Of a stretch of DNA of 64,000 nucleotides, positions 5,337 through 45,302 are shown piece by piece (positions within the stretch are counted from its first letter, which is position 1; every line of letters starts with the position of its first letter). Source of the DNA: Planctomyces sp. SH-PL14 (GTDB lineage Bacteria; Planctomycetota; Planctomycetia; Planctomycetales; Planctomycetaceae); the NCBI RefSeq assembly GCF_001610835.1, contig NZ_CP011270.1, forward strand, positions 7,871,256 through 7,935,255, in the 5' to 3' direction. The position numbers were made by a program, and so were the translations under genes. Below the pieces are notes generated by a model. That model searched no databases, was not told the origin of the DNA, and worked only from the letters and a program-made list of their open reading frames with translations.

Positions 5337-5394
5337 TTTCTGGAGGGTGGTTCGGCCCCGGCCTTCCCCCTCCGCCTTCAGCCTCAACCCTGCC

Positions 5395-6966
5395 ATGTCC
5401 GACTTCATCACGATCTTCGACACGACTCTCCGCGACGGCGAGCAGTCTCCCGGCTGCAGCATGGACACCGAGCAGAAGCTCGAAGTGGCGAAGGCGCTTG
5501 TCGAGCTCGGCGTCGACGTGATCGAGGCGGGGTTCCCGATCGCGTCCCCCGGCGACTTCGACGCGGTCCAGAAGATCGCCCGCAAGTATGGCGACCAGTC
5601 GACGATCTGCGGCCTGGCCCGCTGCCGGACCGAGGACATCGACCGCGCCTGGGAGGCCCTGAAAGACGCCCAGAACGTCCGGATCCACATCTTCCTGGCG
5701 ACGAGTCCGATCCATCGGCAGTTCAAGCTCAAAATGGCGGAGGAAGAGATCATCCGGAAGACGGTCGACATGGTCCGCTACACCGCCGACCGGATGAGCG
5801 AGCGGTCCGACATCACCCGGCCGAACGTCGAGTTCTCACCGGAGGATGCCGCCCGGACGGAGCTCGACTTCCTGTGCCGCGTGGTCGAGAGCGCCATCGA
5901 CGCCGGGGCGACCACGGTCAACATCCCGGACACGGTCGGGTACGCGACCCCGAACCACTTCTACAAGGTGATCTCCTACCTCAAGAAGAACGTCCCCAAC
6001 ATCGAACGGGCGGTCCTGAGCACGCATTGCCACAACGACCTGGGGCTGGCGGTCGCCAACAGCCTGGCCGGGGTGGAAGCGGGAGCCCGGCAGATCGAGT
6101 GCACGATCAACGGTCTGGGCGAGCGGGCCGGGAACGCGGCGCTGGAAGAAGTCGTCATGGCGCTCAAGACGCGTCAGGACTACTTCGGCGTCGACACGCG
6201 GATCAACACGCCGAAGCTCTGTCCGATCAGCCGCCTGGTCTCCAGTACGACCGGGATGCGGGTCCAGCGGAACAAGGCGATCGTCGGTCAGAACGCCTTC
6301 GCCCACGAGGCGGGGATCCACCAGCACGGCATGCTCCAGAACCGCACGACCTATGAGATCATGCGGCCGGAGGATGTCGGCTACACGGGCCAGAACATGG
6401 TCCTGGGGAAGCACAGCGGCCGGCATGCGTTCCGCGATCACCTGAAGCGGATCGGTTACGAGCTGACGGACGAAGACTTCCAGCGGGTGTTCGACGACTT
6501 CATCGCGCTGTGCGACCGCAAGAAGGATGTCTATGACGCCGATATCGCGGCGCTCATCGACAAGCAGATTCATCACGGGCCGGAGACCTGGAAGCTGGTG
6601 AGCTTCCACACATTCGGCGGGACCGGGACGATTCCGACGGCCACGGTCGAGCTGCAGCATCTCGACGGGAAGAAGGTGAAGGACGCCGCGCCGGGGGATG
6701 GACCGGTGGACGCTCTGTTCCGTTGTCTGGACCGGATCACGCACATCACGCCGACGCTCGAGGATTACAGCGTGCGGGGGGTCTCATCGGGGACCGATGC
6801 TCTGGGCGAGGTGACGGTCGAGGTGGAGCAGCAGGGGCGGACGTACCATGGCAAGGGGGTCAGTACCGACATCATCGAGGCGAGCGGTCTCGCGTACCTG
6901 CAGGCGCTGAACAAGATCGCGGCCGGTCTTGGTGCGGCGACGATTCATCCTCAGCACGGTGTCTGA
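5395..6966 (+). CDS. leuA: 2-isopropylmalate synthase
   Basis: MSDFITIFDTTLRDGEQSPG...HCHNDLGLAVANSLAGVEAGARQIECTINGLGERAGNAALEEVVMAL, the HMGL-like TIM barrel plus the C-terminal LeuA dimerisation/regulatory domain. Start chosen at ATG 5395 (same frame as the 5347 ORF). Confidence 0.92.
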   Translation: MSDFITIFDTTLRDGEQSPGCSMDTEQKLEVAKALVELGVDVIEAGFPIASPGDFDAVQKIARKYGDQSTICGLARCRTEDIDRAWEALKDAQNVRIHIFLATSPIHRQFKLKMAEEEIIRKTVDMVRYTADRMSERSDITRPNVEFSPEDAARTELDFLCRVVESAIDAGATTVNIPDTVGYATPNHFYKVISYLKKNVPNIERAVLSTHCHNDLGLAVANSLAGVEAGARQIECTINGLGERAGNAALEEVVMALKTRQDYFGVDTRINTPKLCPISRLVSSTTGMRVQRNKAIVGQNAFAHEAGIHQHGMLQNRTTYEIMRPEDVGYTGQNMVLGKHSGRHAFRDHLKRIGYELTDEDFQRVFDDFIALCDRKKDVYDADIAALIDKQIHHGPETWKLVSFHTFGGTGTIPTATVELQHLDGKKVKDAAPGDGPVDALFRCLDRITHITPTLEDYSVRGVSSGTDALGEVTVEVEQQGRTYHGKGVSTDIIEASGLAYLQALNKIAAGLGAATIHPQHGV

Positions 6967-6993
6967 ACCGTTCTTGCCGGGATGGCTCTCTAG

Positions 6994-7090
6994 CTCAAGC
7001 CCAACGTGCGACGGCAGTCGGGGTCAAGGGGGCCCGAGAAAACAACACGGGCCCCCTTTGCCCCCCCCACAAGGGCGCCCCTGGTCTCGG
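6994..7090 (+). repeat. Dispersed GC-rich palindromic repeat, copy A (left terminus fused to right stem-loop module)
   Basis: CCCAACGTGCGACGGCAGTCGGGGTCAAGGGGGCCCGAGAAAACAACACGGGCCCCCTTTGCCCCCCCCACAAGGGCGCCCCTGGTCTCGG shares termini with copies at 10986, 12693, 56893, 58676, 61166 and others. It lies directly after the leuA stop. Confidence 0.7.
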
Positions 7091-7422
7091 TTCAGTCCTT
7101 CCAGCGAGTCGTCGACGAGGGCTCCAAGGAAGAACGCTGGTTTCCGGCGACACTCCTGAACGGCCCGACGACCATCGTCTTCGACAAGGTCCGGCTCAAC
7201 CCCGAGTTGCCGGACAGCACGTTCTCCCCGCCCCTGCCGCCCGGAACGCAGCTCCACACCGGACGAATGGTGCTCGACCCGATCTCCAACCGGATGGTCC
7301 CCGAGGTGATTGTCATCGGGGGTGAGGAAGGGAAACGCGTCCTGTCCAGGCGACAGGCGAAACTCCGGGAAGAGGGAGCCCGGATCGAAAGGGAACGGGC
7401 TCAACCACCGCCGGATCCCTAG
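7006..7422 (+). CDS. Hypothetical protein (ORF start lies inside repeat copy A; possibly a truncated gene remnant)
   Basis: 138-aa ORF with no recognisable motif. Its start overlaps the repeat. Confidence 0.3.
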   Translation: MRRQSGSRGPEKTTRAPFAPPTRAPLVSVQSFQRVVDEGSKEERWFPATLLNGPTTIVFDKVRLNPELPDSTFSPPLPPGTQLHTGRMVLDPISNRMVPEVIVIGGEEGKRVLSRRQAKLREEGARIERERAQPPPDP

Positions 7423-7896: not shown

Positions 7897-8565
7897 TCAC
7901 TCGTCATCCAGTCCGGCGCGGCGGATGAGCTCTTCGGCCGAGAGGTTGGCTTCGTCGACGGGGGCGTCCAGGGCCCCCTGGGCCTTGTAGTCCTGGGGCT
8001 GGATGGCGGGGAGGGTCGCCAGGAACTCCGGGCCAGCCCCCGTGAGCCACACGACCCGGCCGTAGTACTTCGTCGGCTTGAACCACAGCTTTGAGGAATC
8101 GAACACGCACATCAGCATGAAGACGACGCCCGTCAGGACCGCCGCGAAGGCGATCCAGTTGTAGAGGGCGATGTCCATGAAGCCGAGTTCGCCCGGGGGA
8201 ACGATCACGGCCCCCATCGCCCGCTGGCTGGCGACGAACGCGATCCCCAGGACCGTCATCCCGGCGCCAATCCCGAACAGCCGCAGCCGGCGGCCCTGGT
8301 GCCAGGCGCAGAGCGGAAGGTCCGCTTGAACCGGCCCGGTGTACCTGGCGCCCGTGGCCAGGTCGGACGCGGCCCGCGCGATCGACTGGACGGCGGCCAC
8401 CTCGACGTACCGCTGCCGCTCCCGCGCGAAGGTGAAGTCGACGAGTTCGACCTCATCCTCTTTGTTGCAGATCGCGCATCGCCCCGGACATCTTGTCCCT
8501 TCGCGGATCACCAGGAGCTTGCCGTCCCGATACAGTCCGCTCGTCGAACGCTGTTTCTTCTTCAT
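7897..8565 (-). CDS. Hypothetical membrane protein (CxxC ... C-rich N-terminus, 3 C-terminal TM segments)
   Basis: 222-aa ORF on the minus strand, RCPGRCAICNKEDE zinc-ribbon-like N-terminus and hydrophobic C-terminal half. Confidence 0.5.
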   Translation of the reverse strand: MKKKQRSTSGLYRDGKLLVIREGTRCPGRCAICNKEDEVELVDFTFARERQRYVEVAAVQSIARAASDLATGARYTGPVQADLPLCAWHQGRRLRLFGIGAGMTVLGIAFVASQRAMGAVIVPPGELGFMDIALYNWIAFAAVLTGVVFMLMCVFDSSKLWFKPTKYYGRVVWLTGAGPEFLATLPAIQPQDYKAQGALDAPVDEANLSAEELIRRAGLDDE

Positions 8566-8839
8566 GCTGTCAACGCCCAGGCGCAGATCGTTCCAGCCTC
8601 AACGTACGCACTCGACAACAGCCCTCCCGTCAGCGGGCCCCATTCTGCTCCTGCCTGCGACGCCGGGTCAAGCGCGTCCCGGTCCCGTCGCGCGGCGTGG
8701 AAACTCTCCGCCGCACTCTCCATCATCTTCGACAGCCACGGGCCAACCATCACGTCGGTCGGTCCGGCTGAACTCCTCGCACGACATCCGAGTCGACCGG
8801 GACGCGCTCCTCCGGACGAGCTTCGAAGGGTTTCCGACC

Positions 8840-9931
8840 ATGCGTATCGCGATGATGGTGCTCATCCCCACTTTCTGCGGAGCACTCGCTTCCAGCCTCC
8901 TCCAGCCGGCCACCGCGCGGTGCGCCGAGCCAAAACAGGGAGCGGTCACCAAGGCCGACCTCGGTGGAGGGGTGGCGCTGGAAACGGTCTACATCCCCCC
9001 CGGCCAGTTCCTGATGGGGAGCTCGCCGGAAGAGAAGCTCTGGGCGACCGGCATTGAGGGGGGAGCGACGCCGAACACCGAACGGGAGTCCTATGAAGGG
9101 GAGAAGCCGCGGCTCACCCGCGTGCCGCACGGCTTCTGGATGGGCCGCACTGAGGTCACCGTCGGCCAGTTCCGGAAGTTCGTCGAAGAGTCGAAGTATG
9201 TCACCGACGCCGAGAAGCCCGGCGGACACACGCAGTGCTTCGACCCGAAATGGACCGCGTACAACCTGACGACCCAGGTCGTGCATCCCTGGGAGCCGAT
9301 GGCGGGCAAGAGCTGGCGCGATCCGAACTTTGCCTTCCCGCTCCGCGAAGACTTCCCCGTGGTCTGCGTGAGCTGGAACGATGGCCGGGCCTTCGGCAAG
9401 TGGCTCACGAAGCACGAACGTGACGCGGGACGGCTGCCGGAAGGACTGGAGTACCGGCTCCCGACCGAGGCCGAATGGGAGTACGCCTGCCGCGGCGGGC
9501 GTCAGGACAGCACCTCTTACTGGTGGGGGAACGAGCTGGGTGACGGCGAAGGCCGGTTCAATATCTCCGGGCTCGACCTGCTCCCCGGCCGGACCCGGAA
9601 GTGGCCGCTGGCGAGCGCGCCGTGGAGCGACGGCTTTTCATTCGTCTCGCCGGTGGACCACTACGGCGAGAAGGGCCGCAACGGCTTCGGCATGGCCGAC
9701 ATGTGCGGGGGTGTGTGGGAAGTGGCGCTGGACCACTTCGATCCCAAGGGAGGACATGAGGAGCTGTACGTCGTGAAGGAGAACCCGCGGCCGGTCTGCC
9801 GCGGCGGCAACTACTTCGACGTCCCCGGCAATGCCCGCTGCGCCGTCCGCCTGGGTCTGGCGGGTCCGAGCTATTCGGACTCCCGCGACGGCTTTCGCAT
9901 CTGCCTGGGTCCGGCCGTTGGCAAGGAGTGA
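8840..9931 (+). CDS. Formylglycine-generating-enzyme (FGE/SUMF1) family protein, secreted
   Basis: Signal peptide MRIAMMVLIPTFCGALA, then FGE-sulfatase motifs GMADMCGGVWEV, RGGNYF, HGFWMGRTEVT and CVSWNDGRAF. Start at ATG 8840 in the frame of the 8339 ORF. Confidence 0.8.
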   Translation: MRIAMMVLIPTFCGALASSLLQPATARCAEPKQGAVTKADLGGGVALETVYIPPGQFLMGSSPEEKLWATGIEGGATPNTERESYEGEKPRLTRVPHGFWMGRTEVTVGQFRKFVEESKYVTDAEKPGGHTQCFDPKWTAYNLTTQVVHPWEPMAGKSWRDPNFAFPLREDFPVVCVSWNDGRAFGKWLTKHERDAGRLPEGLEYRLPTEAEWEYACRGGRQDSTSYWWGNELGDGEGRFNISGLDLLPGRTRKWPLASAPWSDGFSFVSPVDHYGEKGRNGFGMADMCGGVWEVALDHFDPKGGHEELYVVKENPRPVCRGGNYFDVPGNARCAVRLGLAGPSYSDSRDGFRICLGPAVGKE

Positions 9932-10001
9932 CTGAAACCCAGGGTAGCCCGCGTTGCGGGAAATCGCCGGCCGCTGCGCCTCGCCTGACGTGTGGTCCGA
10001 T

Positions 10002-10931
10002 TCAGTAGCCCAGGTAGTCGTTGAGCGACGCTTCGCCCGTCCCCGCGCTGGCCGCAGGGCCGGCGGAGTCGGCTGCGAACTTCTGCTGCGCGAGGGCGAG
10101 CGCGACGACCACCGGTGTCGCGGCCAGGGCGATTCGCAGTCCCGTTCGGGTCTTTCCCCCCAGCCTGACCAGTGGCCACAGTTCCGGGATCCAGGCCGCC
10201 AGGGGCGCGGCGAGCAGCAGCGCGGCGTTGGCGGTTGTGAGTCCCGCGAAGAGGCGGCCTACGACCAGCAGTCCGAAGAGCGCCGGCAGGATCACGCCGA
10301 GGCTGGCGGCCGTTTCCGCTCCCGCTCCCCCGGAGGAGTGCCGGCCCCCCACAAGGACCAGCACTCCTCCCGCTGCCGCGGCGGCCGCCAGCGGCACACC
10401 GAGTTGTCCCCCCGCGGCGTAGCCCGAGAGCATGATCGTGATCCCCGCCCCGGCGGCCGTTCCGGCGAACGCGAGGGCCGCGGAGGTGGGGCTTCGTCGC
10501 GCCAGCCGGTCGAGTGCTGTCCAGGAGAGGAAGAGGGCCGCCGCGAGTCCGGCGAACAGTCCCGCCGCCAGCCCTGGAGACCACTCTCGAGTGCCGGGGC
10601 CGGAGAGATCGGCCACGTAGCTCGAGCCATGGACCAGCACCGGGACCGCGCCGGCCGCGACGGCGAGACGCATGAGCCATCCCCAGCGAAACGGCGCGAC
10701 GCACTCGGCGAGGATGGCTCCGGGCACGAGCAGCAGGAGGAGGCGTTCGAGGGCGTCGCGTGGGGGAAGGTGCGGCGCGAGGCCGAGGCCCCAGGCTCCG
10801 GCCAGGATTCCGAGTCCTGTGCCGAGCGCGCCGCCGAGTGGCCGGGAGAGGCGGGCCAGGAGCCAGGTCACCAGGGTGGTGACGAAGGCGGCCAGGGCGG
10901 CGGCCTTGGCCATGACGAGGGGATCGGGCAT
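10002..10931 (-). CDS. Ala/Gly/Leu-rich polytopic membrane protein (hypothetical)
   Basis: 309 aa with ~8 hydrophobic helices. Strong RBS AGGAG-5nt-ATG at the 10931 end. The opposing Arg-rich ORFs look like GC artefacts. Confidence 0.55.
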   Translation of the reverse strand: MPDPLVMAKAAALAAFVTTLVTWLLARLSRPLGGALGTGLGILAGAWGLGLAPHLPPRDALERLLLLLVPGAILAECVAPFRWGWLMRLAVAAGAVPVLVHGSSYVADLSGPGTREWSPGLAAGLFAGLAAALFLSWTALDRLARRSPTSAALAFAGTAAGAGITIMLSGYAAGGQLGVPLAAAAAAGGVLVLVGGRHSSGGAGAETAASLGVILPALFGLLVVGRLFAGLTTANAALLLAAPLAAWIPELWPLVRLGGKTRTGLRIALAATPVVVALALAQQKFAADSAGPAASAGTGEASLNDYLGY

Positions 10932-10985
10932 GGAGACTCCTTGAGAGGGACTGAGCTCGAACCGCGTCCTTGCCGGTGCGGCGAT

Positions 10986-11270
10986 GCCACGTCAAACCCA
11001 TCGTGCCACGGCGGCCGGGGTCAAGGGGGCAACCCCTTGCCGCCGGAGGCACTCCTGTGAGGAACCGTGGTACGCAACGGACGTCCCCTTTGTGGTACCG
11101 GCGTTGAGGACTCCGCCGCTCGCCTTGCAATCGCCGCGGGGTTGGTGTGGGGGCATGCGGCACGGTGTCCGCGTTCGGACACACAAGGTTTTCAGCGGTT
11201 CTCGACGGCCAGGCCTCCGGCGGGCAAGGGGGTGTGACCCCCTTGCATCCCCCACCAGGGGTGACCCCCT
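10986..11270 (+). repeat. Dispersed GC-rich palindromic repeat, full-length copy B (~285 bp)
   Basis: Near-identical in reverse complement to 61166-61425. Left terminus ...CCCATCGTGCCACGGCGGCCGGGGTCAAGGGGGCAACCCCTTGCCGCCGGAGGC..., right terminus ...GCCTCCGGCGGGCAAGGGGGTGTGACCCCCTTGCATCCCCCACCAGGGGTGACCCCCTGGACCCCGG. Confidence 0.8.
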
Positions 11271-11290
11271 GGACCCCGGTTCCTTCCTTC

Positions 11291-11866
11291 TTACTTGTGG
11301 GTGCCTTCAAAACTCACCGTCACATGCACCTCATCACCAATCGCCTCCAACATCTTGTCCATCCCGAACTCACTCCGCTTGATCTTGAACTCGCCCGAGA
11401 AACCCGTCCGGTGCACACCCTTCGGGAACTCCGCCGTCTTCCCCCCATGTAAATTCACCGTGATCGGCTTCGTCACCCCGTGCAGCGTCAGATCACCCGT
11501 CACCTGATACCCCCCGTCCAGCGGCTTGACCGACGTGCTCCGGAACCCAAGGGCCGGGTTCTGCCGCGTGTCGAAGAAGTCCGGACCGCGAAGATGCTCG
11601 TCCCGCTTCACATTGTCCGTGTCGACGCTGTCCGCTTTCGCCAGGATCGCAAACGACGTCGCCGCCGGATTGGCGGCATCGATCTTGAACGAGCCACTCA
11701 CGTCCTTGAACCGCCCGTGCGTCCAGCTCAAACCGAGATGCGAGATCTGAAACGTGACCGCGGTATGGGTCGTGTCGAGGGCGTACTCCTGAGCCCGCGC
11801 CGGGGGGGCAACCAGTCCGGAAAACGCGAAGGCCAAGGCGGTGAGCGCAAACTGTCGAACGTTCAT
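11291..11866 (-). CDS. YceI-family periplasmic protein
   Basis: Signal peptide MNVRQFALTALAFAFSGLVAPPARA followed by a YceI-like polyisoprenoid-binding domain (TFQISHLGLSWTHGRFKDVSGSF...GDLTLHGVTKP). RBS AAGGA-5-ATG. Confidence 0.85.
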   Translation of the reverse strand: MNVRQFALTALAFAFSGLVAPPARAQEYALDTTHTAVTFQISHLGLSWTHGRFKDVSGSFKIDAANPAATSFAILAKADSVDTDNVKRDEHLRGPDFFDTRQNPALGFRSTSVKPLDGGYQVTGDLTLHGVTKPITVNLHGGKTAEFPKGVHRTGFSGEFKIKRSEFGMDKMLEAIGDEVHVTVSFEGTHK

Positions 11867-12216
11867 TCCAATCCTTCTGGGAACAGAGTCCACATCAAAA
11901 CGCCGCCGCAATCGACGCGGCGGACGGGAAAACGCGACGGGGCACAAAAGCTGCGGACCCGCGGCCAGACGGCTCCAGGCCGCCGCACCGACAGGCGTAC
12001 AATCCGAACAGCACAGACAACAGTCACCGAGCCGGTCACATGGGCCGGCTCGTCCGCACAACAGGGTGGCGGTGTCAGGATGGTTGCGGTACACAGAAGA
12101 TCGCCGACGCGGTCTGCACCGGACTCCCTGGCGGACGGCTGGGGAGCGAACTCGGACGTCAGATCCGCGGCTGCGGCGAACTGTAATGCACAGATACATA
12201 ATGTACCATTTCAGTA

Positions 12217-12678
12217 ATGTCAACAGGACCTGATCCCCTCGTCGACCTGCCAAAGCTCTTCCACGAAACCTCGCGGATTTTCGAGCGGTGGATGGATGCG
12301 CACTGCGAGAAGATCGGGACGAGTCCCGCCCGCGCCCGGCTGATGAGCCTGCTGCACTGCGGCGGCTCGCAGCGGATGACCTGTATTGCGGAGGCGCTCG
12401 GGGTCTCGCCGCGGAACGTGACGGCGCTGGTTGACGGGCTTGAGACGGACGGGTTCGCCGAGCGGGAGCCGCATCCGGTCGACCGTCGGGCGACGATGGT
12501 CCGGCTCACCCCCGCAGGTCTGAAGTGGGCGAAGCAGAACCTGTGTCCGCTGTTTGAGCAGTATTCCGCGGCATTCACGAAGCTGCCGAAGGCGGACCGT
12601 GTGGAGTTGGCGCGGCTGTTGTCGGCGGTGCGTGAGACCTTGCAGGCGCACGCGAGCTGCGGCGGCGACAAGGGCTGA
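12217..12678 (+). CDS. MarR-family transcriptional regulator, divergent from yceI-like gene
   Basis: Winged-HTH MarR signature ...MTCIAEALGVSPRNVTALVDGLETDGFAEREPHPVDRRATMVRLTPAG.... 153 aa. Confidence 0.85.
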   Translation: MSTGPDPLVDLPKLFHETSRIFERWMDAHCEKIGTSPARARLMSLLHCGGSQRMTCIAEALGVSPRNVTALVDGLETDGFAEREPHPVDRRATMVRLTPAGLKWAKQNLCPLFEQYSAAFTKLPKADRVELARLLSAVRETLQAHASCGGDKG

Positions 12679-12692
12679 GACCCTACCCAGTA

Positions 12693-12770
12693 CCGGGTCC
12701 AGGGGTACCCTGGTGGGGGATGCAAGGGGGCCCGTGTTGTCTTCTTGGCCCCCTTGCCCGCCGGAGGCCT
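12693..12770 (-). repeat. Dispersed repeat copy C (right stem-loop module only, inverted)
   Basis: CCGGGTCCAGGGGTACCCTGGTGGGGGATGCAAGGGGGCCCGTGTTGTCTTCTTGGCCCCCTTGCCCGCCGGAGGCC is the reverse complement of the right terminus of copy B. Confidence 0.75.
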
Positions 12771-12817
12771 GGCCGTCTCTAGATGTCTGAAGGAGATCGT
12801 GTCCAAGCGCGGACGAA

Positions 12818-13180
12818 ATGCCGGATGCCCCCTCACCTCCTGTTGGTTTGCAGTCGCGACCCGCGCGATCGGCGGCCACGCTTCGCATCCGGTGGCTCCT
12901 TATTGCGACAACCCTCTACGTCGGCGTGTACGTCGCGCTGTCGGCGAGCGGTGGGTACGGAAGCGCGTCGTCGGGGCGGCTTCGTTACGGCGGCGGGTTG
13001 TCGGTGTCGGACCTTCAAGTGTGGCAGCCCCGGTTCTGCCGCTGGCACAGCCGGACGCAGATCGACGGCTCGTGGACGTTCAGTGCCAACCCGCCCGGAG
13101 TCTTCTTCGCGCCGCTGATCCTCATGGACCGGTGTTTCGTCCATCCCACGGTGAACCTGTTCGACCAGCGGCCTCAGTGA
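12818..13180 (+). CDS. Hypothetical small membrane protein
   Basis: 120-aa ORF with one TM segment. No homology recognised, low support. Confidence 0.3.
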   Translation: MPDAPSPPVGLQSRPARSAATLRIRWLLIATTLYVGVYVALSASGGYGSASSGRLRYGGGLSVSDLQVWQPRFCRWHSRTQIDGSWTFSANPPGVFFAPLILMDRCFVHPTVNLFDQRPQ

Positions 13181-13567: not shown

Positions 13568-13638
13568 GCGCCCATGATGTAACGGCGGCCTGCCGCTCTG
13601 CCAGAGCGGTCGTGCGGGTTCGACTCCCGCTGGGCGCT
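13568..13638 (+). tRNA. tRNA-Gly (anticodon GCC)
   Basis: Acceptor GCGCCCA/TGGGCGC, anticodon arm CCGCT-CTGCCAG-AGCGG, T-arm GCGGG-TTCGACT-CCCGC, discriminator T. The D-stem has one mismatch. No encoded CCA. Confidence 0.7.
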
Positions 13639-13672
13639 TCCTGAAATCGAAGGATCACTTCGGAATCACCAC

Positions 13673-13755
13673 GGAAGTCATCCGGCCGGATGAGGGCCCT
13701 GTCTCGAAAACAGGCGCGGTGCAGACCGTTGTGGGTTCGAGTCCCACGGCTTCCG
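13673..13755 (+). tRNA. tRNA-Ser (anticodon CGA), class II with long variable arm
   Basis: Acceptor GGAAGTC/GGCTTCC with G73, anticodon arm CCTGT-CTCGAAA-ACAGG, 16-nt variable arm, T-arm GTGGG-TTCGAGT-CCCAC. The D-arm is atypical (A at position 8) in my hand fold. Confidence 0.55.
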
Positions 13756-13791
13756 CCTCGACAGTTCTGACACAGACGCGCACGCGCACAC

Positions 13792-13863
13792 GGTCCCGTG
13801 GTCCAGCGGCCACGACTCCTGGCTTACATCCAGGCAACGATGGTTCGAGTCCATCCGGGATCA
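13792..13863 (+). tRNA. tRNA-Val (anticodon TAC); its 3' end is the island attachment site
   Basis: Acceptor GGTCCCG/CGGGATC, anticodon arm CCTGG-CTTACAT-CCAGG, T-arm GATGG-TTCGAGT-CCATC, discriminator A. Confidence 0.8.
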
Positions 13864-15131
13864 CTAGTTCTCTTCAAGGAGGGAAGGCTTTTTCCTCGCT
13901 TTCTTGGTTTTTGCTTGGCGTCGTCCATGTGGGTGTCACCGTCGGGCACACTCGGACCGTCGCCGGCAGTCACTGACAAGTGTGCAGAGTAGTGTGCAGC
14001 ATCGGTCGCCCGGGAGAAGTCCTCGTCGCGGACTTGGAGGTAGTTCTTGCTGGCGACCTGCACTGAATGTCCGATCCATTGGCAGACGACGTGAATGGGG
14101 AACTCGGCCGCCAGTTCGGTCTCTCGGGTGGCCCGCAGGTTATGGAACAGCTTGCCCCAGGGCTCCAGGCCGGCGCGACGGATCGTCTGCAGGAGACGCG
14201 TCCGCAGGTTGCAGCTCCGGTCTCGATACCGCGTGATCACAAAGCCACGTTTGTCTTCCGCCGCGGCGTAGAGCGACTGGAGTAGCGGACGCAGCTCCGG
14301 GAACAGGGGAATGGTCCGGCTTCCCTTTCCGCTGTGTCGCTCAGTCTTGGGTGACGTCACAACGATCCGTCCTTTCTTCCAGTCGACGTCCTTCCAACGA
14401 AGTGACAGATGCTCGGACGGGCAGCGGAGACCTCCGAATCGGCCCAGGGCGAACACAAGCCGCCATTCGTCGTCCAGGCACGCCGCCAGGACCTTGTCAG
14501 CCATCTCACGGGTCACGAAGAAGTCTCGCGATCTGTTCTCCCGGACAGTCCGAGGGATGTCGCGGTGAATGAACGGATTCCGGTTGACGACCCCGCGGTC
14601 GGCTGCGTCGGTGAAGAACTGACTGGCGATCGAACACATCTTGCGGACCGTGTTTTCGGACAAACCGCGGCCCGGCCCCCTGCCCTCTCGAAGCATCCAG
14701 TGTCGGAAGTCCTTCGCTTCCCCCAGCGAGACAGATTCGATGGGGCGGTCGTCGCCGAAGACCTTCACCAGATAGCGACGGCAACGTCTCCAGAGGACCT
14801 TGCTCCCTTCGCACACATCGCCACGGCCGGAAATGTAGTCGGCGGTGAAGCCCCCAATGGTGACCGGCTTCGCTTCTGCGGTCGGCCTTGCGATCAAGCC
14901 GTGCGTGTAGAGCTTCTGCCGCATCACGTCGCCGCAGTCCGCAACCCAGGCCGCCGTTTCCGCGGGGACCGCCGTGCTGGCTGTTTGAGAGGTCAACAGT
15001 TGTTCCAGATGCCGCTTGACCCCCTCTGCCGCCTTCTTGGGCATCTTGCCGGGATAGAACGACTTCTGGACTCCGTCGCGGTCCACGTAGCGGATGTTCC
15101 AGGCGTTGCGATTCTTTGAGAGAGATGCCAT
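13824..15131 (-). CDS. int: Tyrosine-type site-specific integrase (phage/P4-like); C-terminus overlaps tRNA-Val on the opposite strand
   Basis: 435 aa with the catalytic R...HxLRHT...Y region (LFHNLRATRETELAAEFPIHVVCQWIGHSVQVASKNYLQV) and a SAM-like N-domain. The stop at 13824 falls inside the tRNA-Val 3' half, typical of tRNA-targeting elements. Confidence 0.9.
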   Translation of the reverse strand: MASLSKNRNAWNIRYVDRDGVQKSFYPGKMPKKAAEGVKRHLEQLLTSQTASTAVPAETAAWVADCGDVMRQKLYTHGLIARPTAEAKPVTIGGFTADYISGRGDVCEGSKVLWRRCRRYLVKVFGDDRPIESVSLGEAKDFRHWMLREGRGPGRGLSENTVRKMCSIASQFFTDAADRGVVNRNPFIHRDIPRTVRENRSRDFFVTREMADKVLAACLDDEWRLVFALGRFGGLRCPSEHLSLRWKDVDWKKGRIVVTSPKTERHSGKGSRTIPLFPELRPLLQSLYAAAEDKRGFVITRYRDRSCNLRTRLLQTIRRAGLEPWGKLFHNLRATRETELAAEFPIHVVCQWIGHSVQVASKNYLQVRDEDFSRATDAAHYSAHLSVTAGDGPSVPDGDTHMDDAKQKPRKRGKSLPSLKRTSDPGWTRTIVAWM

Positions 15132-15215
15132 CGAGACTCCGTTGTGCTGGGAAAAGAGAAACGCCCCGTCAGCCGCGAGGGCCGCCGGGGCGAATAGCCG
15201 ATGGGACCTGCCGCC

Positions 15216-15806
15216 TCAGATGCGGACGCCGATGGAACGGAGCGCCTCATGGGCCTCCTGCTCCGCCGCGACCGGGCAAGCCTGATTCAGGACCACGAGG
15301 CGGACGTCGGTGACGCCGGCAATGTCGAACTCGTGGCGGCCGACCTTGGAGAGCCGGACCAGGCCGGCAGGCTCCACAGGCTTCTCCGCGGGCCGCCGAA
15401 CCGGGCGACCGGCCGTCAGGGTGGCGAGGCACTCGCGGGCCTTCTGAACCGCAACCTCGTCGTCTCCAAACGAGTTGGATACGAGAATCTCGACGTCCTC
15501 AAACCCAGGGATCTGAACGAGACGACGATCATCCCGGCCGACCGCCAAGTCGACTTCCGGACCGTAGCCGGAGGCAACGTCGAGGGCCTCGGCCGCCGTC
15601 AGGCAGAAGCCGGCGAGCGCCCTGAGTTCTTCTGCCGCGAAGTCGGCAGGACTCGCCCCGGAGATGTCCGAATGGCGACGCACTTTCAGGACTCGGTAGC
15701 CCTCTCCCACATCTTCGATCCGCACGTCGCCATCGAACGTGTCGTCGATGATGTGCTGGACCTCTTCCAAGCTCAGAACCTTTTCTTGTTTCACTACGTC
15801 GATCAT
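15216..15806 (-). CDS. Hypothetical protein (island), intact member of a tandem duplicate pair
   Basis: 196-aa ORF MIDVVKQEKVLSLEEVQHIIDD.... A paralogous copy lies immediately upstream. Confidence 0.5.
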   Translation of the reverse strand: MIDVVKQEKVLSLEEVQHIIDDTFDGDVRIEDVGEGYRVLKVRRHSDISGASPADFAAEELRALAGFCLTAAEALDVASGYGPEVDLAVGRDDRRLVQIPGFEDVEILVSNSFGDDEVAVQKARECLATLTAGRPVRRPAEKPVEPAGLVRLSKVGRHEFDIAGVTDVRLVVLNQACPVAAEQEAHEALRSIGVRI

Positions 15807-15829
15807 CTGGATAAACTCCGTGAATTGGT

Positions 15830-16356
15830 CTCCGCCGCGTTGTCGGCAAAACTCTTCGGCGGAGACTGGTGACTTCGGCCGTGGGGAACGTCCCCGCGGC
15901 CTTTTCTTTTGACACGTCCCCCGCGGGAAACGTGACCTCGCGGACTCGCCGGGCGTCCAACATGCTGCCGATGGCCTCTTGGGCCATCACCAACGCCTCG
16001 TCTTGGTTGCCAGCGTTGTGGACAAGGATTTCAACGCTCTCGTAGCCCCGAATCTCGAAGCGGTGGCGTTAGCCCCAACGAGGGACAAGCGAGGGCAGCC
16101 CAGCGTCGAGGCCAGCGGCCTCCGCGATCTCGTCAGCAGCCGCAATGGAACGCCCGGAGACCTGACGCATCACGGACGAAACGAACTCCGCAGGAGACGC
16201 TCCGGGCGGCGATCGGAAAGCCTTCGGCCTGATCCAGACGCGAAGCTCGCCGGCCGCGTTCCGGGACACGCCGGCCTGCCCGTGGAACGCCTTTCCCACT
16301 GTGATGCGGGCCTCCCCGAGGCTCGATTCTTGGGCCGGCTCGGCCGTGTCGATCAT
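15830..16356 (-). pseudogene. Disrupted paralog of 15216..15806 (in-frame TAA at 16069-16071 and a later frame change)
   Basis: Translation MIDTAEPAQESS...AEFVSSVMRQ...PRWG*RHRFEIRGYESVEILVHNAGNQDEALV... aligns to P1 (MIDVVKQEK...ADFAAEELRA...FEDVEILVSNSFGDDEVAV) across the stop. Confidence 0.4.
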
Positions 16357-16647
16357 CTGTCGACCTCCCTTCAAAAGAGAAACCCCGCTGGCCGCCAAGG
16401 GTGAAGCTTGGCGACCGCGGGGTCGGAGCATCGGACGGCCAGCACGCCGCCCGATCGATTGTTTTGCCCTCCACCCCGGTCCCTTCACCGAACCAGCGTG
16501 GCGTGTTGGCTGGGAATATAGAGCCCTTTCCCCCCTGCGGAAAGCACAAAATCACTATGTGCTTTTCACAAATGCACCACACAGTGCGTAAGTGATTTGC
16601 CGTTCATTACTTGCCGTCTCTAGGATTTTTGAACAGAGGGGGCAAAC

Positions 16648-16935
16648 TTGGCGCGTTCCACCGTCACGCTGACAGAGATTGAAGCCTTGGCCGCGGACCT
16701 TGAACGGTCCGCTGGGCGGCTGCGCAAGGCGATTGCGGACGCCAGGGCTTCGGGGATTGATTCGCTACAGCTTCATTGGTCGAGGGCCAGCGGAGCCCAT
16801 TTGTCAGCAATTGGCCGGGTGGCAAAAGATGCTGAGGTTCAGGCAGATGACGCCGCAAGGGCCAAGAGCCTGGGGATCAAGACGGCGGCGGAGTCGTACA
16901 AGGCTACTGCGGCGAAACGTAAGGCTCGCGGATAG
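16648..16935 (+). CDS. Small hypothetical protein (TTG start), first gene of the lower-GC module
   Basis: 95-aa ORF preceded by GAGGGGG. It follows an AT-richer 100-bp promoter-like region at 16540-16647. Confidence 0.4.
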   Translation: MARSTVTLTEIEALAADLERSAGRLRKAIADARASGIDSLQLHWSRASGAHLSAIGRVAKDAEVQADDAARAKSLGIKTAAESYKATAAKRKARG

Positions 16936-17031
16936 GCACAGTCGCTCTCCAGGCTTCGTTGTGAAGCCGGTTTACCCCACACGGAGGCCGGGGGTATTCT
17001 TCGGCCACACCCCGTGTTAGGAAGGGTCCAC

Positions 17032-18243
17032 ATGCCATTCGCGTATCGTGACACGGACGGCAGCTTTAGTGTCGTCCACTCGGCGAATGCCGCCCCCGGA
17101 GACGTCGAGGCATTCGAACTCCCCGCCGACTTTCGAAAGTGTCCTGGAAGCGCATACAGGAGGGAGGGCGACTGCCTCGTCCCTGACACGCAGAAAAACT
17201 TCGAACGCGAAGAAGCTGCTCGATCCGCCTGCGCCAAGGAGGTCAGCGAAAACTGGACAACCGGACTAGACATGCCTGAGCCCGTAGTTCTGGATCCAGA
17301 ATCGGTAACGTTTGGGGATGCGGACCAGTTTTCGCAATCAATTGTAGAAAAGGCCGCCGCCCGTGGCCTGATTTTGATTTCATCTTCCGTTCGTAAGTTG
17401 GTCAACTTGGCGTTCTACGGGAGCCTTGAAGAGGAAGAAGGACGCTGTTATCCGATTAGACTAGAGCTGATTGCCCCGGGCGCATTTCCTCGCCACAGAG
17501 GTGAGATTCTGCGATTCGAGGATAGCAAGGAAGTGACACCTCGCGTACTGGCGAGATTGGCTCCCGGGCTCGACCCAACGCAATCAAACTTCTTGATTGA
17601 GCAAGGCCCGCCATTGAAACTTTGGGGGATAGGAATTCGCGACAGGTCGCTGTACCGATGGACGACCAATGACTTAAACACGTCCGACTTCTCTCGGCCT
17701 CCGCGGGGCTTGGTTGTACGGAGCGTCGGCCCGGGACACCTGATTGCCGAATACGCCAATACTCGCTTGGGTGAGTTTAAACGAGGCGTGTTCTTCGAGA
17801 ATTTTGTACAAGTGTTTTCGGACGACGGCCCAATAAGGCGATTCCTAGACGGAAACAAGCTGGATGTGCATTTCGCCGACTCATCCATCCGTGACACTAC
17901 GCACCGCCTCGTTTCGAAGTGTGCGGAGAGCGGCCACGGTGGGCTCATCGCCATAGTTGGGAACAACGATTTGGAGGCATTGGCATCGGGCGGCTTAATT
18001 GATCGCGGCGTGTCAATCGGCTGGCCGGCCGTTGAGTCATACTTGAAAGGTAGAGGCGAACTTTGTGAGAGGCCCGGTGCCAAGTACGACACGTCAACCG
18101 ACGAAGCCATGAGTGATATTTGGCTGACGGGCACAGGGGCAATCCTGAGAGACAAAGCTTCCATGATGTATTCATATCGGCACTTGCAATGGCTAGCATC
18201 GCTGAAAGGAGCGACCGGACGTTATGAAGCTGCCGAGGAATAA
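17032..18243 (+). CDS. Unknown ~300-aa N-terminal domain fused to the first half of a diadenylate cyclase (DAC/DisA_N) domain; terminated by a TAA that splits the DAC domain
   Basis: RBS AGGAAGGG-5-ATG at 17032. The C-terminal ...ESGHGGLIAIVGNNDLEALASGGLIDRG... matches the CdaA/DisA 'GALIV...YIETG' block. The same frame continues after a single stop into the 18286 ORF. Confidence 0.55.
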   Translation: MPFAYRDTDGSFSVVHSANAAPGDVEAFELPADFRKCPGSAYRREGDCLVPDTQKNFEREEAARSACAKEVSENWTTGLDMPEPVVLDPESVTFGDADQFSQSIVEKAAARGLILISSSVRKLVNLAFYGSLEEEEGRCYPIRLELIAPGAFPRHRGEILRFEDSKEVTPRVLARLAPGLDPTQSNFLIEQGPPLKLWGIGIRDRSLYRWTTNDLNTSDFSRPPRGLVVRSVGPGHLIAEYANTRLGEFKRGVFFENFVQVFSDDGPIRRFLDGNKLDVHFADSSIRDTTHRLVSKCAESGHGGLIAIVGNNDLEALASGGLIDRGVSIGWPAVESYLKGRGELCERPGAKYDTSTDEAMSDIWLTGTGAILRDKASMMYSYRHLQWLASLKGATGRYEAAEE

Positions 18244-18285
18244 TGGCGACTTCGAGCAGGCGAATTAATCGATGCAATAGACGCG

Positions 18286-18615
18286 GTGAGTTTCTTGGCC
18301 CATCCTGACGGTGCATTGATACTCGGCACCGGCCTGCAAGTGTACTCATTCTCCTCGAAGATTCAGAATGTGCAGCAGGTGTCGGTATATCGTGCAAAGG
18401 ATGCATCGGCCTCAATGATTGAGCCGTTTTCATCCAAAGAACTTGGGACGCGACATCGTTCCGCGATTTGGCTAGCAAGCTGCCTTCCGAACAGTTGTGT
18501 TTTTGTAATTTCCGAGGATGGGGTCGTTTCCGCCATAAGACAATGGAAAGGCAGGCTCATCCTTTGGCGGCCAATTACTACCGGCAGGTTCGACACGGTT
18601 TCAGGAACGAATTAG
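18286..18615 (+). CDS. Second half of the DAC (c-di-AMP synthase) domain, with DGA and GTRHR motifs; same frame as the upstream ORF, 14 sense codons after its TAA
   Basis: ...FLAHPDGALILGTG...PFSSKELGTRHRSAIWLAS...CVFVISEDGVVSAIRQ parallels B. subtilis CdaA PLHDGAVII...ISKELGTRHRAA...TIVVSEETGGVSVA. Confidence 0.55.
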   Translation: MSFLAHPDGALILGTGLQVYSFSSKIQNVQQVSVYRAKDASASMIEPFSSKELGTRHRSAIWLASCLPNSCVFVISEDGVVSAIRQWKGRLILWRPITTGRFDTVSGTN

Positions 18616-18891
18616 CGTGCTTGTCAAGTTGCTTCCTACTAAGCCCGCCGCGCGGTCGTTGGGAGCTTACGCCACCGTGGACTTGCATCCGGATGAATTC
18701 CGGGACTGGCCTGCGAACCTATAGGTCTGCCATGAGTCTATCGGGCAGAGCGTTTTAGAAGTCAGGCAAGAACCTTCCCGTGTTACGGCGAGATCCCGGC
18801 AAGCCACTGAAGAGATAATCTTTCGTCGCAGGTGACCAGGTGAATTCGCGGCAGTGTCGGTTGTTGTTCAGTACGTTGTTGACGAGGCAAA

Positions 18892-19698
18892 TTGATGGAA
18901 GACGCTGCCTGCTACATGTGCGACCGGCCAGCCACGTCGAGGGAGCACGTCCCCCCGAGATGTCTTTTCCCCGAGATGAAGGACATCGGCGAGAATCACC
19001 GCGTCAACCTCCTGACGGTCCCTTCCTGCGACGAACACAACAGCGGGAAGTCAGCCGACGATGAGTTCCTGATGGCAAGTTTGGCCGGCATGACAGGGAA
19101 CAACCGAGTTGGAATTCTGCACAAGTTCTCAAAGGTCAACAGGGCGATCTTCCGTAGTTCTTTCGGCCTGCTGGACCAGGCGCTGTCGGACCAAACGATC
19201 GAATGGCTTGAAGTCTCGCCTGGGACGTTCCTAGATGTAACTTGGGGAAAGCCAGACTACGCCCGCTTGGCAAGGTGCTTCGAGCGAATCGCACACGGAA
19301 TGCACCTCTGCCACTTTGGACAAAGATTTCGAGGGACACTGAAATACTTGTTCGACTTTCCGACCAAGGATGGGCACTGGTCGGAGTCGGATGACGTTGG
19401 ACGAAGGAAGTTCGTCGAAGAATTCGACGGAAAACCGCGTCTTGGAAGTAATCCGGAGGTGTTCACCTACCAGTTCTCGATACCGGACCAATTAGGAGTG
19501 GCCAGCGCGCATTTTCAGTTTTACGGCAGTATGAACATCTATGTCGCCTTCTACCCCGGCCAGATCCAGCGTCTCATAGAACTGATGAATGAGGCGCGTG
19601 GAGTCGCCAAGCCCGTGTACGCGTGGCTGGGAGGAAAGCTCTACGCATTGAATTCAGCCGCGGTTGAAGATGACGGTGCATCACTCAGGGACCTTTGA
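18892..19698 (+). CDS. HNH-endonuclease-domain protein (N-terminal CxxC...H...C..HN motif) with an uncharacterised ~200-aa C-terminal domain
   Basis: CYMCDRPATSREHVPPRCLF...VPSCDEHNSGKS is a canonical HNH/His-Me finger. 268 aa, lower-GC codon usage like the DAC gene, GAGG RBS. Confidence 0.7.
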   Translation: MMEDAACYMCDRPATSREHVPPRCLFPEMKDIGENHRVNLLTVPSCDEHNSGKSADDEFLMASLAGMTGNNRVGILHKFSKVNRAIFRSSFGLLDQALSDQTIEWLEVSPGTFLDVTWGKPDYARLARCFERIAHGMHLCHFGQRFRGTLKYLFDFPTKDGHWSESDDVGRRKFVEEFDGKPRLGSNPEVFTYQFSIPDQLGVASAHFQFYGSMNIYVAFYPGQIQRLIELMNEARGVAKPVYAWLGGKLYALNSAAVEDDGASLRDL

Positions 19699-20217
19699 AA
19701 ATCCCCTCCCCAGCCCGGCCTTTCGACCGGGACAGGGTTCATCGAAGGAACCCGACGAGAAGGCGATTCCAACCGCGTCCGCCAAGGTCCTCTGTCTGGG
19801 GCGATTCTCGGCGTCACTCAAGGGGCAGCACTCCGTTCAGCGATTCGCTTGTTTGACCGATAGACGTGAAATGACCCCACTCCCCACAGGTCACTCCAAC
19901 GCAGCAGCGATATCGCCACGCGATGTTGCCCATCATGCAGCATCATGACCGGCAAGAATGTTTGCTCCCAAGGACTTGTCTCCCTGACCAGTCGGCGACG
20001 GGCCTCAAGAGGCAACGCCGAGATCGAATCGTCCGAGCCCTGAATCAGGCGGGCGAGAGGCGCGTATAAGAGTGGGTACGCAAGCATCGCGACGACACAC
20101 AGGACGGCGTATCGAATTCGTCTGGTCAAGTCACACCCCCTGCAGGTCATCGTAGCCTCCCTGTCACGGAGTCAGATGCTATTCCTCGACGCCATACCCT
20201 GTTTGTGCTCCTAACGT

Positions 20218-20300
20218 CCCCGCACTCCGGCGACCAACCGGCGACGGGGATCATCCAAGTTACCACAGATCAGGGTCCGCAGTTGCGGACGGTTCAGCAC
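20218..20300. repeat. ~85-bp direct repeat (copy 1) flanking the WD40 gene; 3'-flank relic of a lost paralog
   Basis: CCCCGCACTCCGGCGACCAACCGGCGACGGGGATCATCCAAGTTACCACAGATCAGGGTCCGCAGTTGCGGACGGTTCAGCAC is ~80% identical to 21629-21712. It contains the hairpin GTCCGCA-GT-TGCGGAC. Confidence 0.6.
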
Positions 20301-20460
20301 GACTAGAACGCGAGCTGCGTCACCCGCTGCTGATCGACACCCGGTGCCGAGTCTCTCGCTGGCCAGGATCAGAGCAGCGACCTTTGTCGCTGGCCCGCAC
20401 GTTCTCGCCGGGCGAATGAGTCGCGGGAGCCCATTTCGTGAGGTAAAATCCGAGACCTCC
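20299..20460 (-). pseudogene. C-terminal remnant of a third paralog of the 21715/22378 family (...DQQRVTQLAF*)
   Basis: The minus-strand frame ends ...VDQQRVTQLAF*, matching the C-termini ...NQQEVATLTRRLETLRDAAILAV and ...SSASVLAV of the intact paralogs. No intact N-terminal part is present. Confidence 0.3.
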
Positions 20461-20530
20461 AAGACACCCGCGTGTGCCTGGGCAGTTGCCAGAGGATGGT
20501 TGGGGCCGTGTTTCAATCGGAGGAGCCGAG

Positions 20531-21595: not shown

Positions 21596-21628
21596 GACGC
21601 GAAAACGATACCGATAGCCTTTATCCCC

Positions 21629-21712
21629 CCGCACGCCGGCGAGCAACCGGCAGCGGCGATCATCCGAGTTGCCAAAGATCAGATGTCCGCAACTCTGCGG
21701 ACGGCTTCAGGG
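21629..21712. repeat. ~85-bp direct repeat (copy 2), 3' flank of paralog gene 21715..22233
   Basis: See the 20218-20300 repeat. Confidence 0.6.
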
Positions 21713-21714
21713 CA

Positions 21715-22233: not shown

Positions 22234-22377
22234 TGGGGCTCCGTGTGATGGCCGCGGTCGAGAGCCAGGGGGACCGCGGCGGGGAAGTGTGTTTGTGTCC
22301 GGGGCAAGAACCCCGGACGCGGGGAACGACCGCAGGAGATCCCACGGTCGTTCGCCTCGCGTCGGGTCATCAACGGG

Positions 22378-22953: not shown

Positions 22954-23024
22954 TATGGAAGAGAGAGGGTTTCGGGCCGAGGACGCCTCGGCCGTGACAG
23001 AGGTTGCCGGTCGTCCGGCGAGAG

Positions 23025-45295: not shown

Positions 45296-45302
45296 CCTGG
45301 GC

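Follow-up and report, generated by a model that had tools for sequence, protein, structure and literature searches.

What kind of element is the GC-rich palindromic repeat that recurs in a 64-kb stretch of the genome of the soil planctomycete Planctomyces sp. SH-PL14, and do its copies form a genuine family? The whole stretch, referred to here as the window, has a G+C content of 64-70% outside a lower-GC island and 65% overall. An earlier note on this DNA, centered on the copy at 10986-11270, described a modular repeat resembling MITEs (miniature transposable elements with inverted repeats) or repetitive extragenic palindromic (REP) sequences. The analysis reported here reveals that the family is real, abundant and undescribed. 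Its members are most likely (we estimate the probability at roughly 0.6) cis-acting hairpin elements, non-autonomous, non-coding and specific to one lineage, which resemble the inverted REP doublets known as REPINs as well as bacterial interspersed mosaic elements (BIMEs), and which would have spread in a way that leaves the target unduplicated.

Identification and dispersal of the family

A blastn search with the segment 10950-11300 of the window as a query recovered a second full copy on the minus strand (61454-61199, 80% identity over 259 nt, E = 5e-60) and the partial copies (E = 1e-8 to 1e-25), so that all nine copies listed in the earlier note were found again. A profile (nhmmer) of 340 columns, built from 87 full copies, was searched against the window and 585 kb of metagenome contigs (650 kb together, which samples ~8% of the 8.4-Mb genome); it yielded 228 matches and added a tenth, weak copy in the window (37971-38056). 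The 22-base pattern of the right terminus matched the window 5 times, vs. 0 matches in 100 dinucleotide-preserving shuffles. The copies in the window have a density of about 1 per 6-7 kb and account for 2.6% of its bases; extrapolated from this density, the family may reach about a thousand copies and a few percent of the 8.4-Mb genome.

Dispersal was assessed with a degenerate pattern derived from the core of the element (GGGGYATNCG-N7-GTYCGCG-NN-YGSRCAC), which was scanned against a metagenome collection. It matched at least 120 stretches or contigs with 63-70% G+C, and all of the matches listed come from the JGI data sets Ga0247822, Ga0247823 and Ga0247824. Only 4 pairs of contigs overlap among the matches listed (99.5-99.9% identical, without indels), hence the matches stand for at least ~116 different loci. 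The window copy gave at least 99 near-full-length blastn matches to the listed contigs, with ~80% identity. One of these contigs, L200, is orthologous to the window segment 9332-15191 with 95-97% identity, which indicates that Ga0247822-4 sample a population very close to SH-PL14. The possibility that there is no family at all, i.e. that we see chance similarity between GC-rich, low-complexity sequences or a local segmental duplication, has practically no weight: the only argument for it is the GC richness of the window (65%), while against it stand E-values down to 5e-60, 0 of 100 shuffles, and at least 120 distinct contigs with about 100 full-length copies, which agree with the dispersed family proposed earlier and not with local clustering.

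The range of the family is narrow. Three contigs from relatives with 89-90% identity in LeuA (L242, which is syntenic upstream of leuA, L243 and L244) contain 0 matches in 28.7 kb, where ~4.5 would be expected, and from this absence the family appears to be confined to the species-level lineage of SH-PL14. No empty site could be defined downstream of leuA in these ~90% relatives, in which synteny stops exactly at the leuA stop codon. No matches were found on plasmids (blastn). The family has no counterpart in Rfam 15: in the window only tRNAs reach the gathering score, and the best match of the element at permissive thresholds is Clostridiales-2 (E = 1.3, 14 bits vs. 58.6). No published description of this repeat was found in the literature searched by sequence string and organism.

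The Logan contig L001 (4 kb, carrying the GH5 gene) ends within copies of the repeat on both sides, as multicopy repeats break short-read assembly. The same lineage carries other families of hairpin repeats, for example a GTAACCCCACCCTTGAAAGGGTGGGCTGTTTTCGGCCGTCCC unit and units of CCAGGGCCAGCGGCCCTGG. They were seen at L145:200-750 and matched again in L202, L227, L159, L192, L212, L213, L225 and L152, and in L145 a cluster of them interrupts a copy of the element described here.

Anatomy of the element

In the 87 aligned copies and their flanks conservation starts at (G)CTCGAACCGCGTCCTTGCCGG and ends sharply after CCCTGGACCC(C)GGT (the ends may also be written CTCGAACCGCGTCC...GGACCCGGT); the extreme termini, ACCGCGTCC and GGACCCGGT, form a weak inverted repeat. 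The real length of the full element is ~325 bp, and not ~270 bp as first described; the copy at 10952-11281 begins ~34 nt to the left of 10986, at CTCGAACCGCGTCCTTGCCGG. The characterization as modular and hairpin-rich is borne out by the alignments, which display a left arm, inverted hairpin units, a core and a terminal CCAGGG/CCCTGG hairpin (Table 1). The left hairpin unit has the consensus GGGGTC-AAGGGGGC-loop-GCCCCCTT-GCCGCCGGAGGC (RNA fold z = -2.9 to -3.1 for 11017-11050) and the right one, its inverted partner, GCCTCCGGCGGGCAA-GGGGC-loop-GCCCC-TTGCA(T/C)CCCCCA. This inverted pair of CAAGGGGGC hairpins flanks a conserved core of ~190 nt and constitutes subterminal inverted repeats of ~35 nt.

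The blocks of the core with more than 90% identity include GAGGAACCGTGG, AACGGACGTCC, TTTGTGGTACCGGCGTTGAGGACT, GGGGGCATRCGGCAC and GGGTTGGTGAGGGGGCAT; the core also contains a small hairpin, GTGTCCG-CGYT-YGGACAC (GTGTCCG/CGGACAC), and its consensus includes the short palindromes GGACGTCC, GGTACC and CCGCGG. A coding core was considered and rejected, as the alignment exhibits 13-nt and 1-nt indels and no 3-periodicity; the core is regarded as non-coding because such indels are tolerated. A candidate long-range pairing of GGTGAGGGG with CCCCCACC was also dismissed, since the alignment shows no compensating variation. The copies take full, 5'-truncated right-half, left-only or mini forms, and their modules and loops are reshuffled from one copy to the next. 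About half of the copies carry an insert of 13 nt behind GAGGACT, the hairpin loops comprise 1-4 nt or a long loop AAGAAACAACACAG that may occupy either hairpin in either orientation, and the right hairpin shows discrete stem variants.

Table 1. Modules of the full copy at 10952-11281 and copies of the repeat in the window
Feature	Position	Strand	Description
Left arm, ~65 nt	10952-11016	+	CTCGAACCGCGTCCTTGCCGG...CAAACCCAxCGTGCCACGGC; conservation becomes stronger at CTCGAACC in alignments of 39-87 copies
Left hairpin unit	11017-11050	+	GGGGT tag, CAAGGGGGC-loop-GCCCCCTTG, then GCCGCCGGAGGC
Conserved core	11051-11212	+	column identity >90% in 71-87 copies
Right-end module	11213-11281	+	GCCTCCGGCGGGCAAGGGGG-loop-CCCCCTTGCATCCCCCA, CCAGGG-loop-CCCTGG, ACCC(C)GGT
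Mini copy	6967-7091	+	profile span 6967-7034, continuing to about 7091; directly after leuA stop (6966)
Full copy	10952-11281	+	nhmmer model 8-336, E = 2e-90
5'-truncated right-half copy after MarR gene	12690-12837	-	nhmmer 202-336, E = 1e-35
Weak left-arm fragment beside 38113-38254 copy	37971-38056	-	nhmmer 7-93, E = 5e-5
5'-truncated right-half copy upstream of KaiC-like gene	38113-38254	-	nhmmer 207-335, E = 1.5e-20
Left-part-only copy	45269-45375	+	nhmmer 14-124, E = 3e-14
5'-truncated right-half copy	56867-57037	+	nhmmer 182-337, E = 1e-27
5'-truncated right-half copy	58642-58824	+	nhmmer 168-336, E = 4e-30
Second full copy	61162-61465	-	nhmmer 9-337, E = 6e-73
5'-truncated right-half copy, 5' side of GH2-like gene	63430-63565	-	nhmmer 202-336, E = 1e-20

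Sequence constraint and RNA structure

The two copies with orthologs in L200 (10952-11281, 97.6% identical, and 12690-12837, kept at the orthologous locus with 145 of 148 positions identical) evolve more slowly than synonymous sites: they differ at 11 of 478 positions (2.3%), vs. 70 of 985 third codon positions (7.1%) in four neighboring genes (Fisher p = 8e-5; first and second positions, 1.2%). Within the family, private variants (those present in at most 2 of 71 copies; mean 0.93 per column) are distributed unevenly (chi-square p = 2e-8): 15 columns hold only 3-8 of them in the right-end module vs. 27-30 in the central core, i.e. they are 4-5 times rarer in the module. This low variation in the hairpin module points to purifying selection at the level of the host, or to gene conversion, because an intact resident copy brings no 'selfish' gain.

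Covariation is likewise confined to the hairpins. RNAalifold analysis of 71 full copies gave a covariation term of only -1.35 kcal/mol and compensation in 4 of 46 pairs, of which three belong to the right hairpin (A-U 36 / G-C 29; C-G 54 / A-U 15 / U-A 1; G-C 61 / C-G 5) and the fourth is found in only 2 sequences; the loop-closing pairs of the left hairpin covary too. The same 71 copies provided no covariation in support of a fold of the core, which is conserved as primary sequence. We consider the orientation-independent hairpins to be the likely functional part of the element.

Genomic context

Genes were called by frame-specific G+C content at third codon positions, and 71 full copies could be placed with genes on both sides. 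In 22 cases both neighbors are co-oriented with the element, in 14 both are opposed to it, 20 copies lie between convergent and 15 between divergent genes; thus, there is no significant orientation preference relative to genes in these 71 copies (22 vs. 14 in tandem contexts). Genes that read toward the left end stop close to it: the median distance between their stop codon and the beginning of the profile match is 3-5 nt, and in 11 of 35 cases the stop codon falls within the first eight nt of the element, with a cluster of TGA|ACCGCGTCC junctions. The stop codons of convergent genes are located ~21-26 nt from the right end, and gene starts 50-110 nt away. A semi-conserved CTC(G/A)A directly precedes the ACCGCGTCC terminus in about 65-80% of the copies.

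In the window, the claim that all copies are intergenic is essentially correct, save for frequent overlaps between the left end and a stop codon (e.g. 45295, 61455). The copy at 10952-11281 occupies the entire spacer between a YceI-family gene (11291-12253, minus) and the open reading frame (ORF) 10002-10931 (minus), and the second full copy, in which the right CAAGGGGG hairpin is deleted according to the alignment, fills the spacer between a GH2-like gene (stop at 61455) and a GH5 gene (start at 61075). In the mini copy the left arm and the left hairpin arm are joined by one long-loop hairpin to the right terminus. The left-part-only copy overlaps the final 27 nt of a phosphodiesterase gene (43529-45295, Pfam), the copy at 56867-57037 sits downstream of the stop codon of the gene 57220-58623 (minus), and the one at 58642-58824, between the start of that gene and the GH5 stop codon (58841), has its long hairpin loop inverted relative to other copies. 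The hairpin of the copy at 63430-63565 is a compensated variant (CAGGGGGGG/CCCCCCCTG).

Several of the partial copies turned out to be longer in the profile search than listed before. The 80-nt conserved extension that had been ascribed to the right-half copies could not be confirmed: they share no common left extension and are truncated on the 5' side at model positions 142-207. There are 5 right-half vs. 2-3 left-only copies in the window; the metagenome loci were picked with a right-half pattern, so that a truncation bias cannot be read from them. No copies lie between 12.8 and 38 kb of the window, a stretch that includes a low-GC integrase island at 13.8-30 kb.

Nature of the element

The proposed cis-acting hairpin element would combine two properties. 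Its spread without target duplication might proceed by hairpin-directed single-strand cleavage and joining, or by recombination or gene conversion between hairpin units, and its copies might be retained since palindromic hairpins can act in cis, in both orientations, at the ends of genes, either as RNA stem-loops that protect or terminate 3' ends or as insulators between tightly packed genes. Of the functions suggested in the earlier note, we infer, rather than demonstrate, that of a REP-like terminator or mRNA-stability element, which is the most plausible one. The asymmetric core would more likely act at the level of DNA, in protein binding or mobilization, than as a structured RNA.

Several observations weigh against this interpretation. 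The searches described below revealed neither a Y1/RAYT/TIRYT transposase nor an autonomous copy in the 650 kb, i.e. in ~8% of the 8.4-Mb genome. Neither presence/absence polymorphism, sought in the 4 overlapping pairs of metagenome contigs, nor an empty site was recovered, so that mobility is deduced from dispersal alone. A consensus scan of the element gave no U-tract terminator. The fold z-scores of the hairpins are modest compared with GC-rich shuffles (-1.5 to -3.1, and ~0 for two degenerate copies). The estimate of constraint between strains comes from two orthologous copies only, and within the family, conversion between copies could give the appearance of purifying selection. Finally, a function of the hairpins only leaves the strongly conserved asymmetric core unexplained.

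Among the alternatives that involve a transposase, we regard as unlikely a derivative of IS200/IS605 of the type known as palindrome-associated transposable elements (PATEs), or one mobilized by RAYT, in which a Y1 HUH enzyme would recognize the hairpins and insert the element 3' of a short target (...CTCGA / TGA), and in which the core could conceivably represent the remnant of a guide-RNA scaffold. IS200/IS605 elements adjoin a conserved tetra- or pentanucleotide at their left end. CTC(G/A)A directly left of ACCGCGTCC and the cluster of TGA|ACCGCGTCC junctions would fit such a target, as would the hairpins near both ends and the lack of target-site duplications. However, the strands of the ten copies in the window are mixed (+ + - - - + + + - -), unlike what replication-coupled transposition would produce; single-strand transposons are reportedly expected, from the work of Ton-Hoang and Chandler, to be strongly biased by the direction of replication. 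Moreover, the element lacks a GTAG tag, its left hairpin lies ~65 nt from the end, which is far for IS200/IS605, and an RNA scaffold finds neither an Rfam match nor covariation. The ORFs of the 650 kb were also searched (phmmer) with 10 RAYT/TIRYT sequences, two of them from the planctomycete Rhodopirellula (Di Nocera et al. 2013, PMC3733652, Additional file 5), and with 2 TnpA sequences, of IS200 and IS608; no IS200/IS605 TnpA or RAYT/TIRYT ORF was found, though the method works, as the IS200 TnpA query matched an ORF in the unrelated locus L004 with E = 5e-43. A classical MITE, i.e. an element derived by deletion from an insertion sequence with a DDE transposase and mobilized in trans via its terminal inverted repeats, would account for the strong 35-nt subterminal inverted repeats, the weak terminal pair ACCGCGTCC / GGACCCGGT, the high copy number and the intergenic location in both orientations. 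Nonetheless, direct repeats of 2-8 bp did not exceed shuffled controls in 39 copies, whatever the offset of the boundaries, so a duplication-making DDE MITE is unsupported; the inverted repeats lie inside the element, at distances of ~65 nt (left) and 35 nt (right) from its ends, and the interior is constrained, unlike the usual interiors of MITEs. No left and right ends that enclose an insert of coding size were found in the 650 kb. The earlier MITE interpretation has a very poor chance of being right. A 520-bp interruption in L145, examined as a candidate autonomous insert, turned out to consist of other hairpin repeats of this genome.

Two further alternatives place the function in the core. 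Arrays of binding sites for a DNA-binding protein of the host, nucleoid-associated or other, in which the core would be the site and the hairpins a by-product of spread, would explain the independence of orientation, the conservation of primary sequence without covariation and the many short core palindromes, by analogy with the sites of IHF and gyrase in the BIMEs of Escherichia coli. Yet private mutations peak in the central core and are fewest in the hairpin module, whereas a function centered on the core predicts the reverse, and right-half and hairpin-only copies are kept without most of the core, which makes this explanation rather improbable. If the core were a functional RNA and the hairpins its terminator, i.e. 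if the copies were multicopy small RNA (sRNA) genes or structured cis-regulatory RNAs, the conservation of the core blocks above 95%, the slower-than-synonymous evolution and the stable hairpins on the 3' side would be expected. But compensation restricted to the right hairpin, together with the lack of orientation bias, argues against a family of sRNA genes; the element has no sigma-70-like promoter or U-tract terminator in the consensus scan and no Rfam family, and it tolerates the 13-nt and 1-nt indels as well as variable truncations. The sRNA family that the earlier note had thought possible is consequently very doubtful.

Related hairpins in other phyla

A pattern of the right terminus (CCCCCACCAGGG-N3-8-CCCTGGACCC) was scanned against a collection of species-representative genomes, where it matched at least 120 stretches. 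The matches listed include Azospirillaceae, Acetobacteraceae, other Alphaproteobacteria, Magnetococcales, Desulfovibrionaceae, gut Clostridia, Riflebacteria, Wallbacteria and one Streptomyces, often with many contigs per genome. The sequence common to the SH-PL14 element and the loci from other phyla comprises only ~50 nt. In 97 of the 123 listed matches a G-run/C-run hairpin ends at most 6 nt upstream, which the pattern did not require, and the exact 13-mer GGGGTCAAGGGGG (tag and stem of the left hairpin) is present in 9 of the 120 listed loci, with <1 expected by chance; in the five loci compared by coordinates (L006, L020, L050, L057 and L077) it lies within ~45 nt of the motif. Neither of these two patterns was met in 2.9 million viral contigs. 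Rfam searches with 17 of the loci from other phyla, at gathering and permissive thresholds, identified no family that covers the shared motif.

Judged by these sequence matches, the module of the SH-PL14 element under the strongest constraint is part of a set of hairpins found repeatedly in different phyla, be it by descent, transfer or convergence. We tentatively speculate, well short of an even chance, that the right-end module and its inverted partner could be members of a third pan-bacterial superfamily of 'tagged' REP-like hairpins, with a grammar in which G-run/C-run stems precede ACCCC (GGGGT when the opposite strand is read); among the matches listed, CCCCCACCAGGG..CCCTGGACCC and GGGGTCAAGGGGG occur side by side in high-copy repeats of Planctomycetota, Rhodospirillales, Magnetococcales, Desulfovibrionaceae, Clostridia and candidate phyla. 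Were such a superfamily to exist, SH-PL14 would provide a case in which its hairpins are under purifying selection within a larger, lineage-specific element, and common descent or a common recognizing factor would imply a widespread, unrecognized activity that mobilizes or binds hairpins specifically. A 50-nt module that is the most constrained part of the element and common to distant phyla makes it testable whether REP-like hairpins are convergent by-products or targets of common machinery.

In contigs of metagenome-assembled genomes (MAGs) of gut Clostridia (L017, L018, L089, L108 and L118) the double hairpin is repeated in tandem every ~113 nt (...GGGGCTATGCGCCCCACACCCCCACCAGGGAGTTCCTCCCTGGACCCGGTTCACAA...), an organization different from that of the interspersed copies elsewhere. 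In a Magnetococcales MAG, an ORF of an IS200-type TnpA (L004, ~7100, plus strand) and a triple-hairpin repeat of the shared type are ~3.6 kb apart and not adjacent.

Other features of the window

Annotation of the repeat improves gene models, as the repeat breaks short-read assemblies and spawns spurious ORF calls. Repeat-derived sequence inflates the ORF calls at the GH2-like gene and at 10984-11382; the GH2-like ORF (61455-63554) would at full length begin within the copy 63430-63565, and its true start is probably downstream of 63430. A gene of a double-domain KaiC-family ATPase (36304-37827, minus; Pfam KaiC, E = 5e-69) is located directly downstream of the two adjoining partial copies. 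Upstream in the window, leuA corresponds to 5347-6966, and its product has 100% identity to the 2-isopropylmalate synthase of SH-PL14; the window also encodes an H-X9-DG-CTERM protein, which fits a planctomycete.

The region 13568-31050 is a probable integrated island. A tyrosine recombinase gene (13824-15131, minus) adjoins a tRNA-Val gene (tRNAs are located at 13568-13864 and 29984-31050) and is followed by ~15 kb of DNA of lower G+C content (0.55-0.63 at 16-30 kb), which ends at a cluster of six tRNA genes. The island integrase differs from its L200 ortholog at 20% of third positions, and neighboring genes at 6-11%. In the spacer between the gene 8339-9931 and ORF 10002-10931, a 52-nt indel and 17% divergence separate the window (9955-9968) from L200 (626-689); this is the only large indel between SH-PL14 and L200 in 5.9 kb. 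A tRNA at 49998-50071 (+), with the best Rfam score in the window (61.7 bits), is reported by ARAGORN as 'tRNA-???' with the anticodon 'tg' and has an abnormal anticodon loop; because it falls inside the long ORF 49715-52453, the 5' part of that ORF may be spurious.

Comparison with known systems

REPs and REPINs, which are mobilized by RAYTs in Pseudomonas and E. coli, resemble the SH-PL14 element in being high-copy, extragenic, GC-rich palindromes that replicate as an inverted pair of hairpins (here with ~100 full copies), located mainly after genes, without target-site duplication and with a short unpaired tag on one side (here GGGGT / ACCCC). They differ in size, as the SH-PL14 unit measures ~325 bp with a spacer of ~190 nt, vs. 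about 70-110 bp, and in the RAYT, which was not found in the 650 kb. The GT[AG]G tag at the end of the palindrome that defines the GTAG superfamily is absent (the units read GGGGTC-AAGGGGGC...GCCCCCTT-GCC and CCCCCA-CCAGGG...CCCTGG-ACCC); lacking GTAG and, in the 650 kb, a RAYT, the element is placed outside this superfamily. The enterobacterial BIMEs are similar in that they are mosaics of inverted palindromic units and conserved non-palindromic segments, with full, half and mini variants, which occupy the intergenic spacers of operons and those separating convergent genes. The SH-PL14 element is such a mosaic, with several combinatorial forms, an optional 13-nt insert and a movable long loop, but it shares no sequence similarity with BIMEs, its internal segment is much longer, and the protein partners of BIMEs are IHF, gyrase and Pol I.

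CGTC-tagged REPs are found mainly in Alphaproteobacteria and have been reported in Planctomycetes as well (Di Nocera et al. 2013, PMC3733652). They are defined by a CGTC/TGTC/CCTC tag, a stem of 8-9 bp that opens with two A-T pairs, a loop of 4-5 nt and a CCA tail (PMC3733652). The SH-PL14 units share with them an 8-bp stem with the first two pairs A-T (AAGGGGGC/GCCCCCTT), the head-to-head dimers and the lack of a known dedicated transposase, and come close in their loops (mostly 3-4 nt, e.g. CTCA or CACG, vs. 4-5) and in a 4-nt 5' tag that ends in GTC. However, the units are embedded in a larger element, with G-run/C-run stems instead of the ATTCCCGC type of dRS3/RPE, and they are not CGTC REPs because their tag is GGTC and their tail GCC/GCA.

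Bacterial MITEs (Correia, ERIC, RUP, Nezha) are, like this element, non-autonomous, species-specific, intergenic sequences of 100-400 bp with inverted repeats and hundreds of copies; the SH-PL14 element differs in its subterminal inverted repeats, its constrained sequence and the lack of a target-site duplication and, in the 650 kb, of a recognizable parent insertion sequence. PATEs, which derive from IS200/IS605, share with it the lack of duplication, the subterminal hairpins and a short conserved motif at the left junction, but here no orientation bias is seen within the window, no TnpA or TnpB was found, and the geometry of the hairpins is different. The element is thus of the REP/BIME kind, outside the definitions of GTAG REPs, CGTC REPs and duplication-making MITEs. 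It lends itself well to the question of how such hairpins function in a phylum where hardly any cis elements have been characterized, and is an example of a large REP/BIME-like element that lacks the classifying tags and an association with a transposase, yet exhibits measurable purifying selection.

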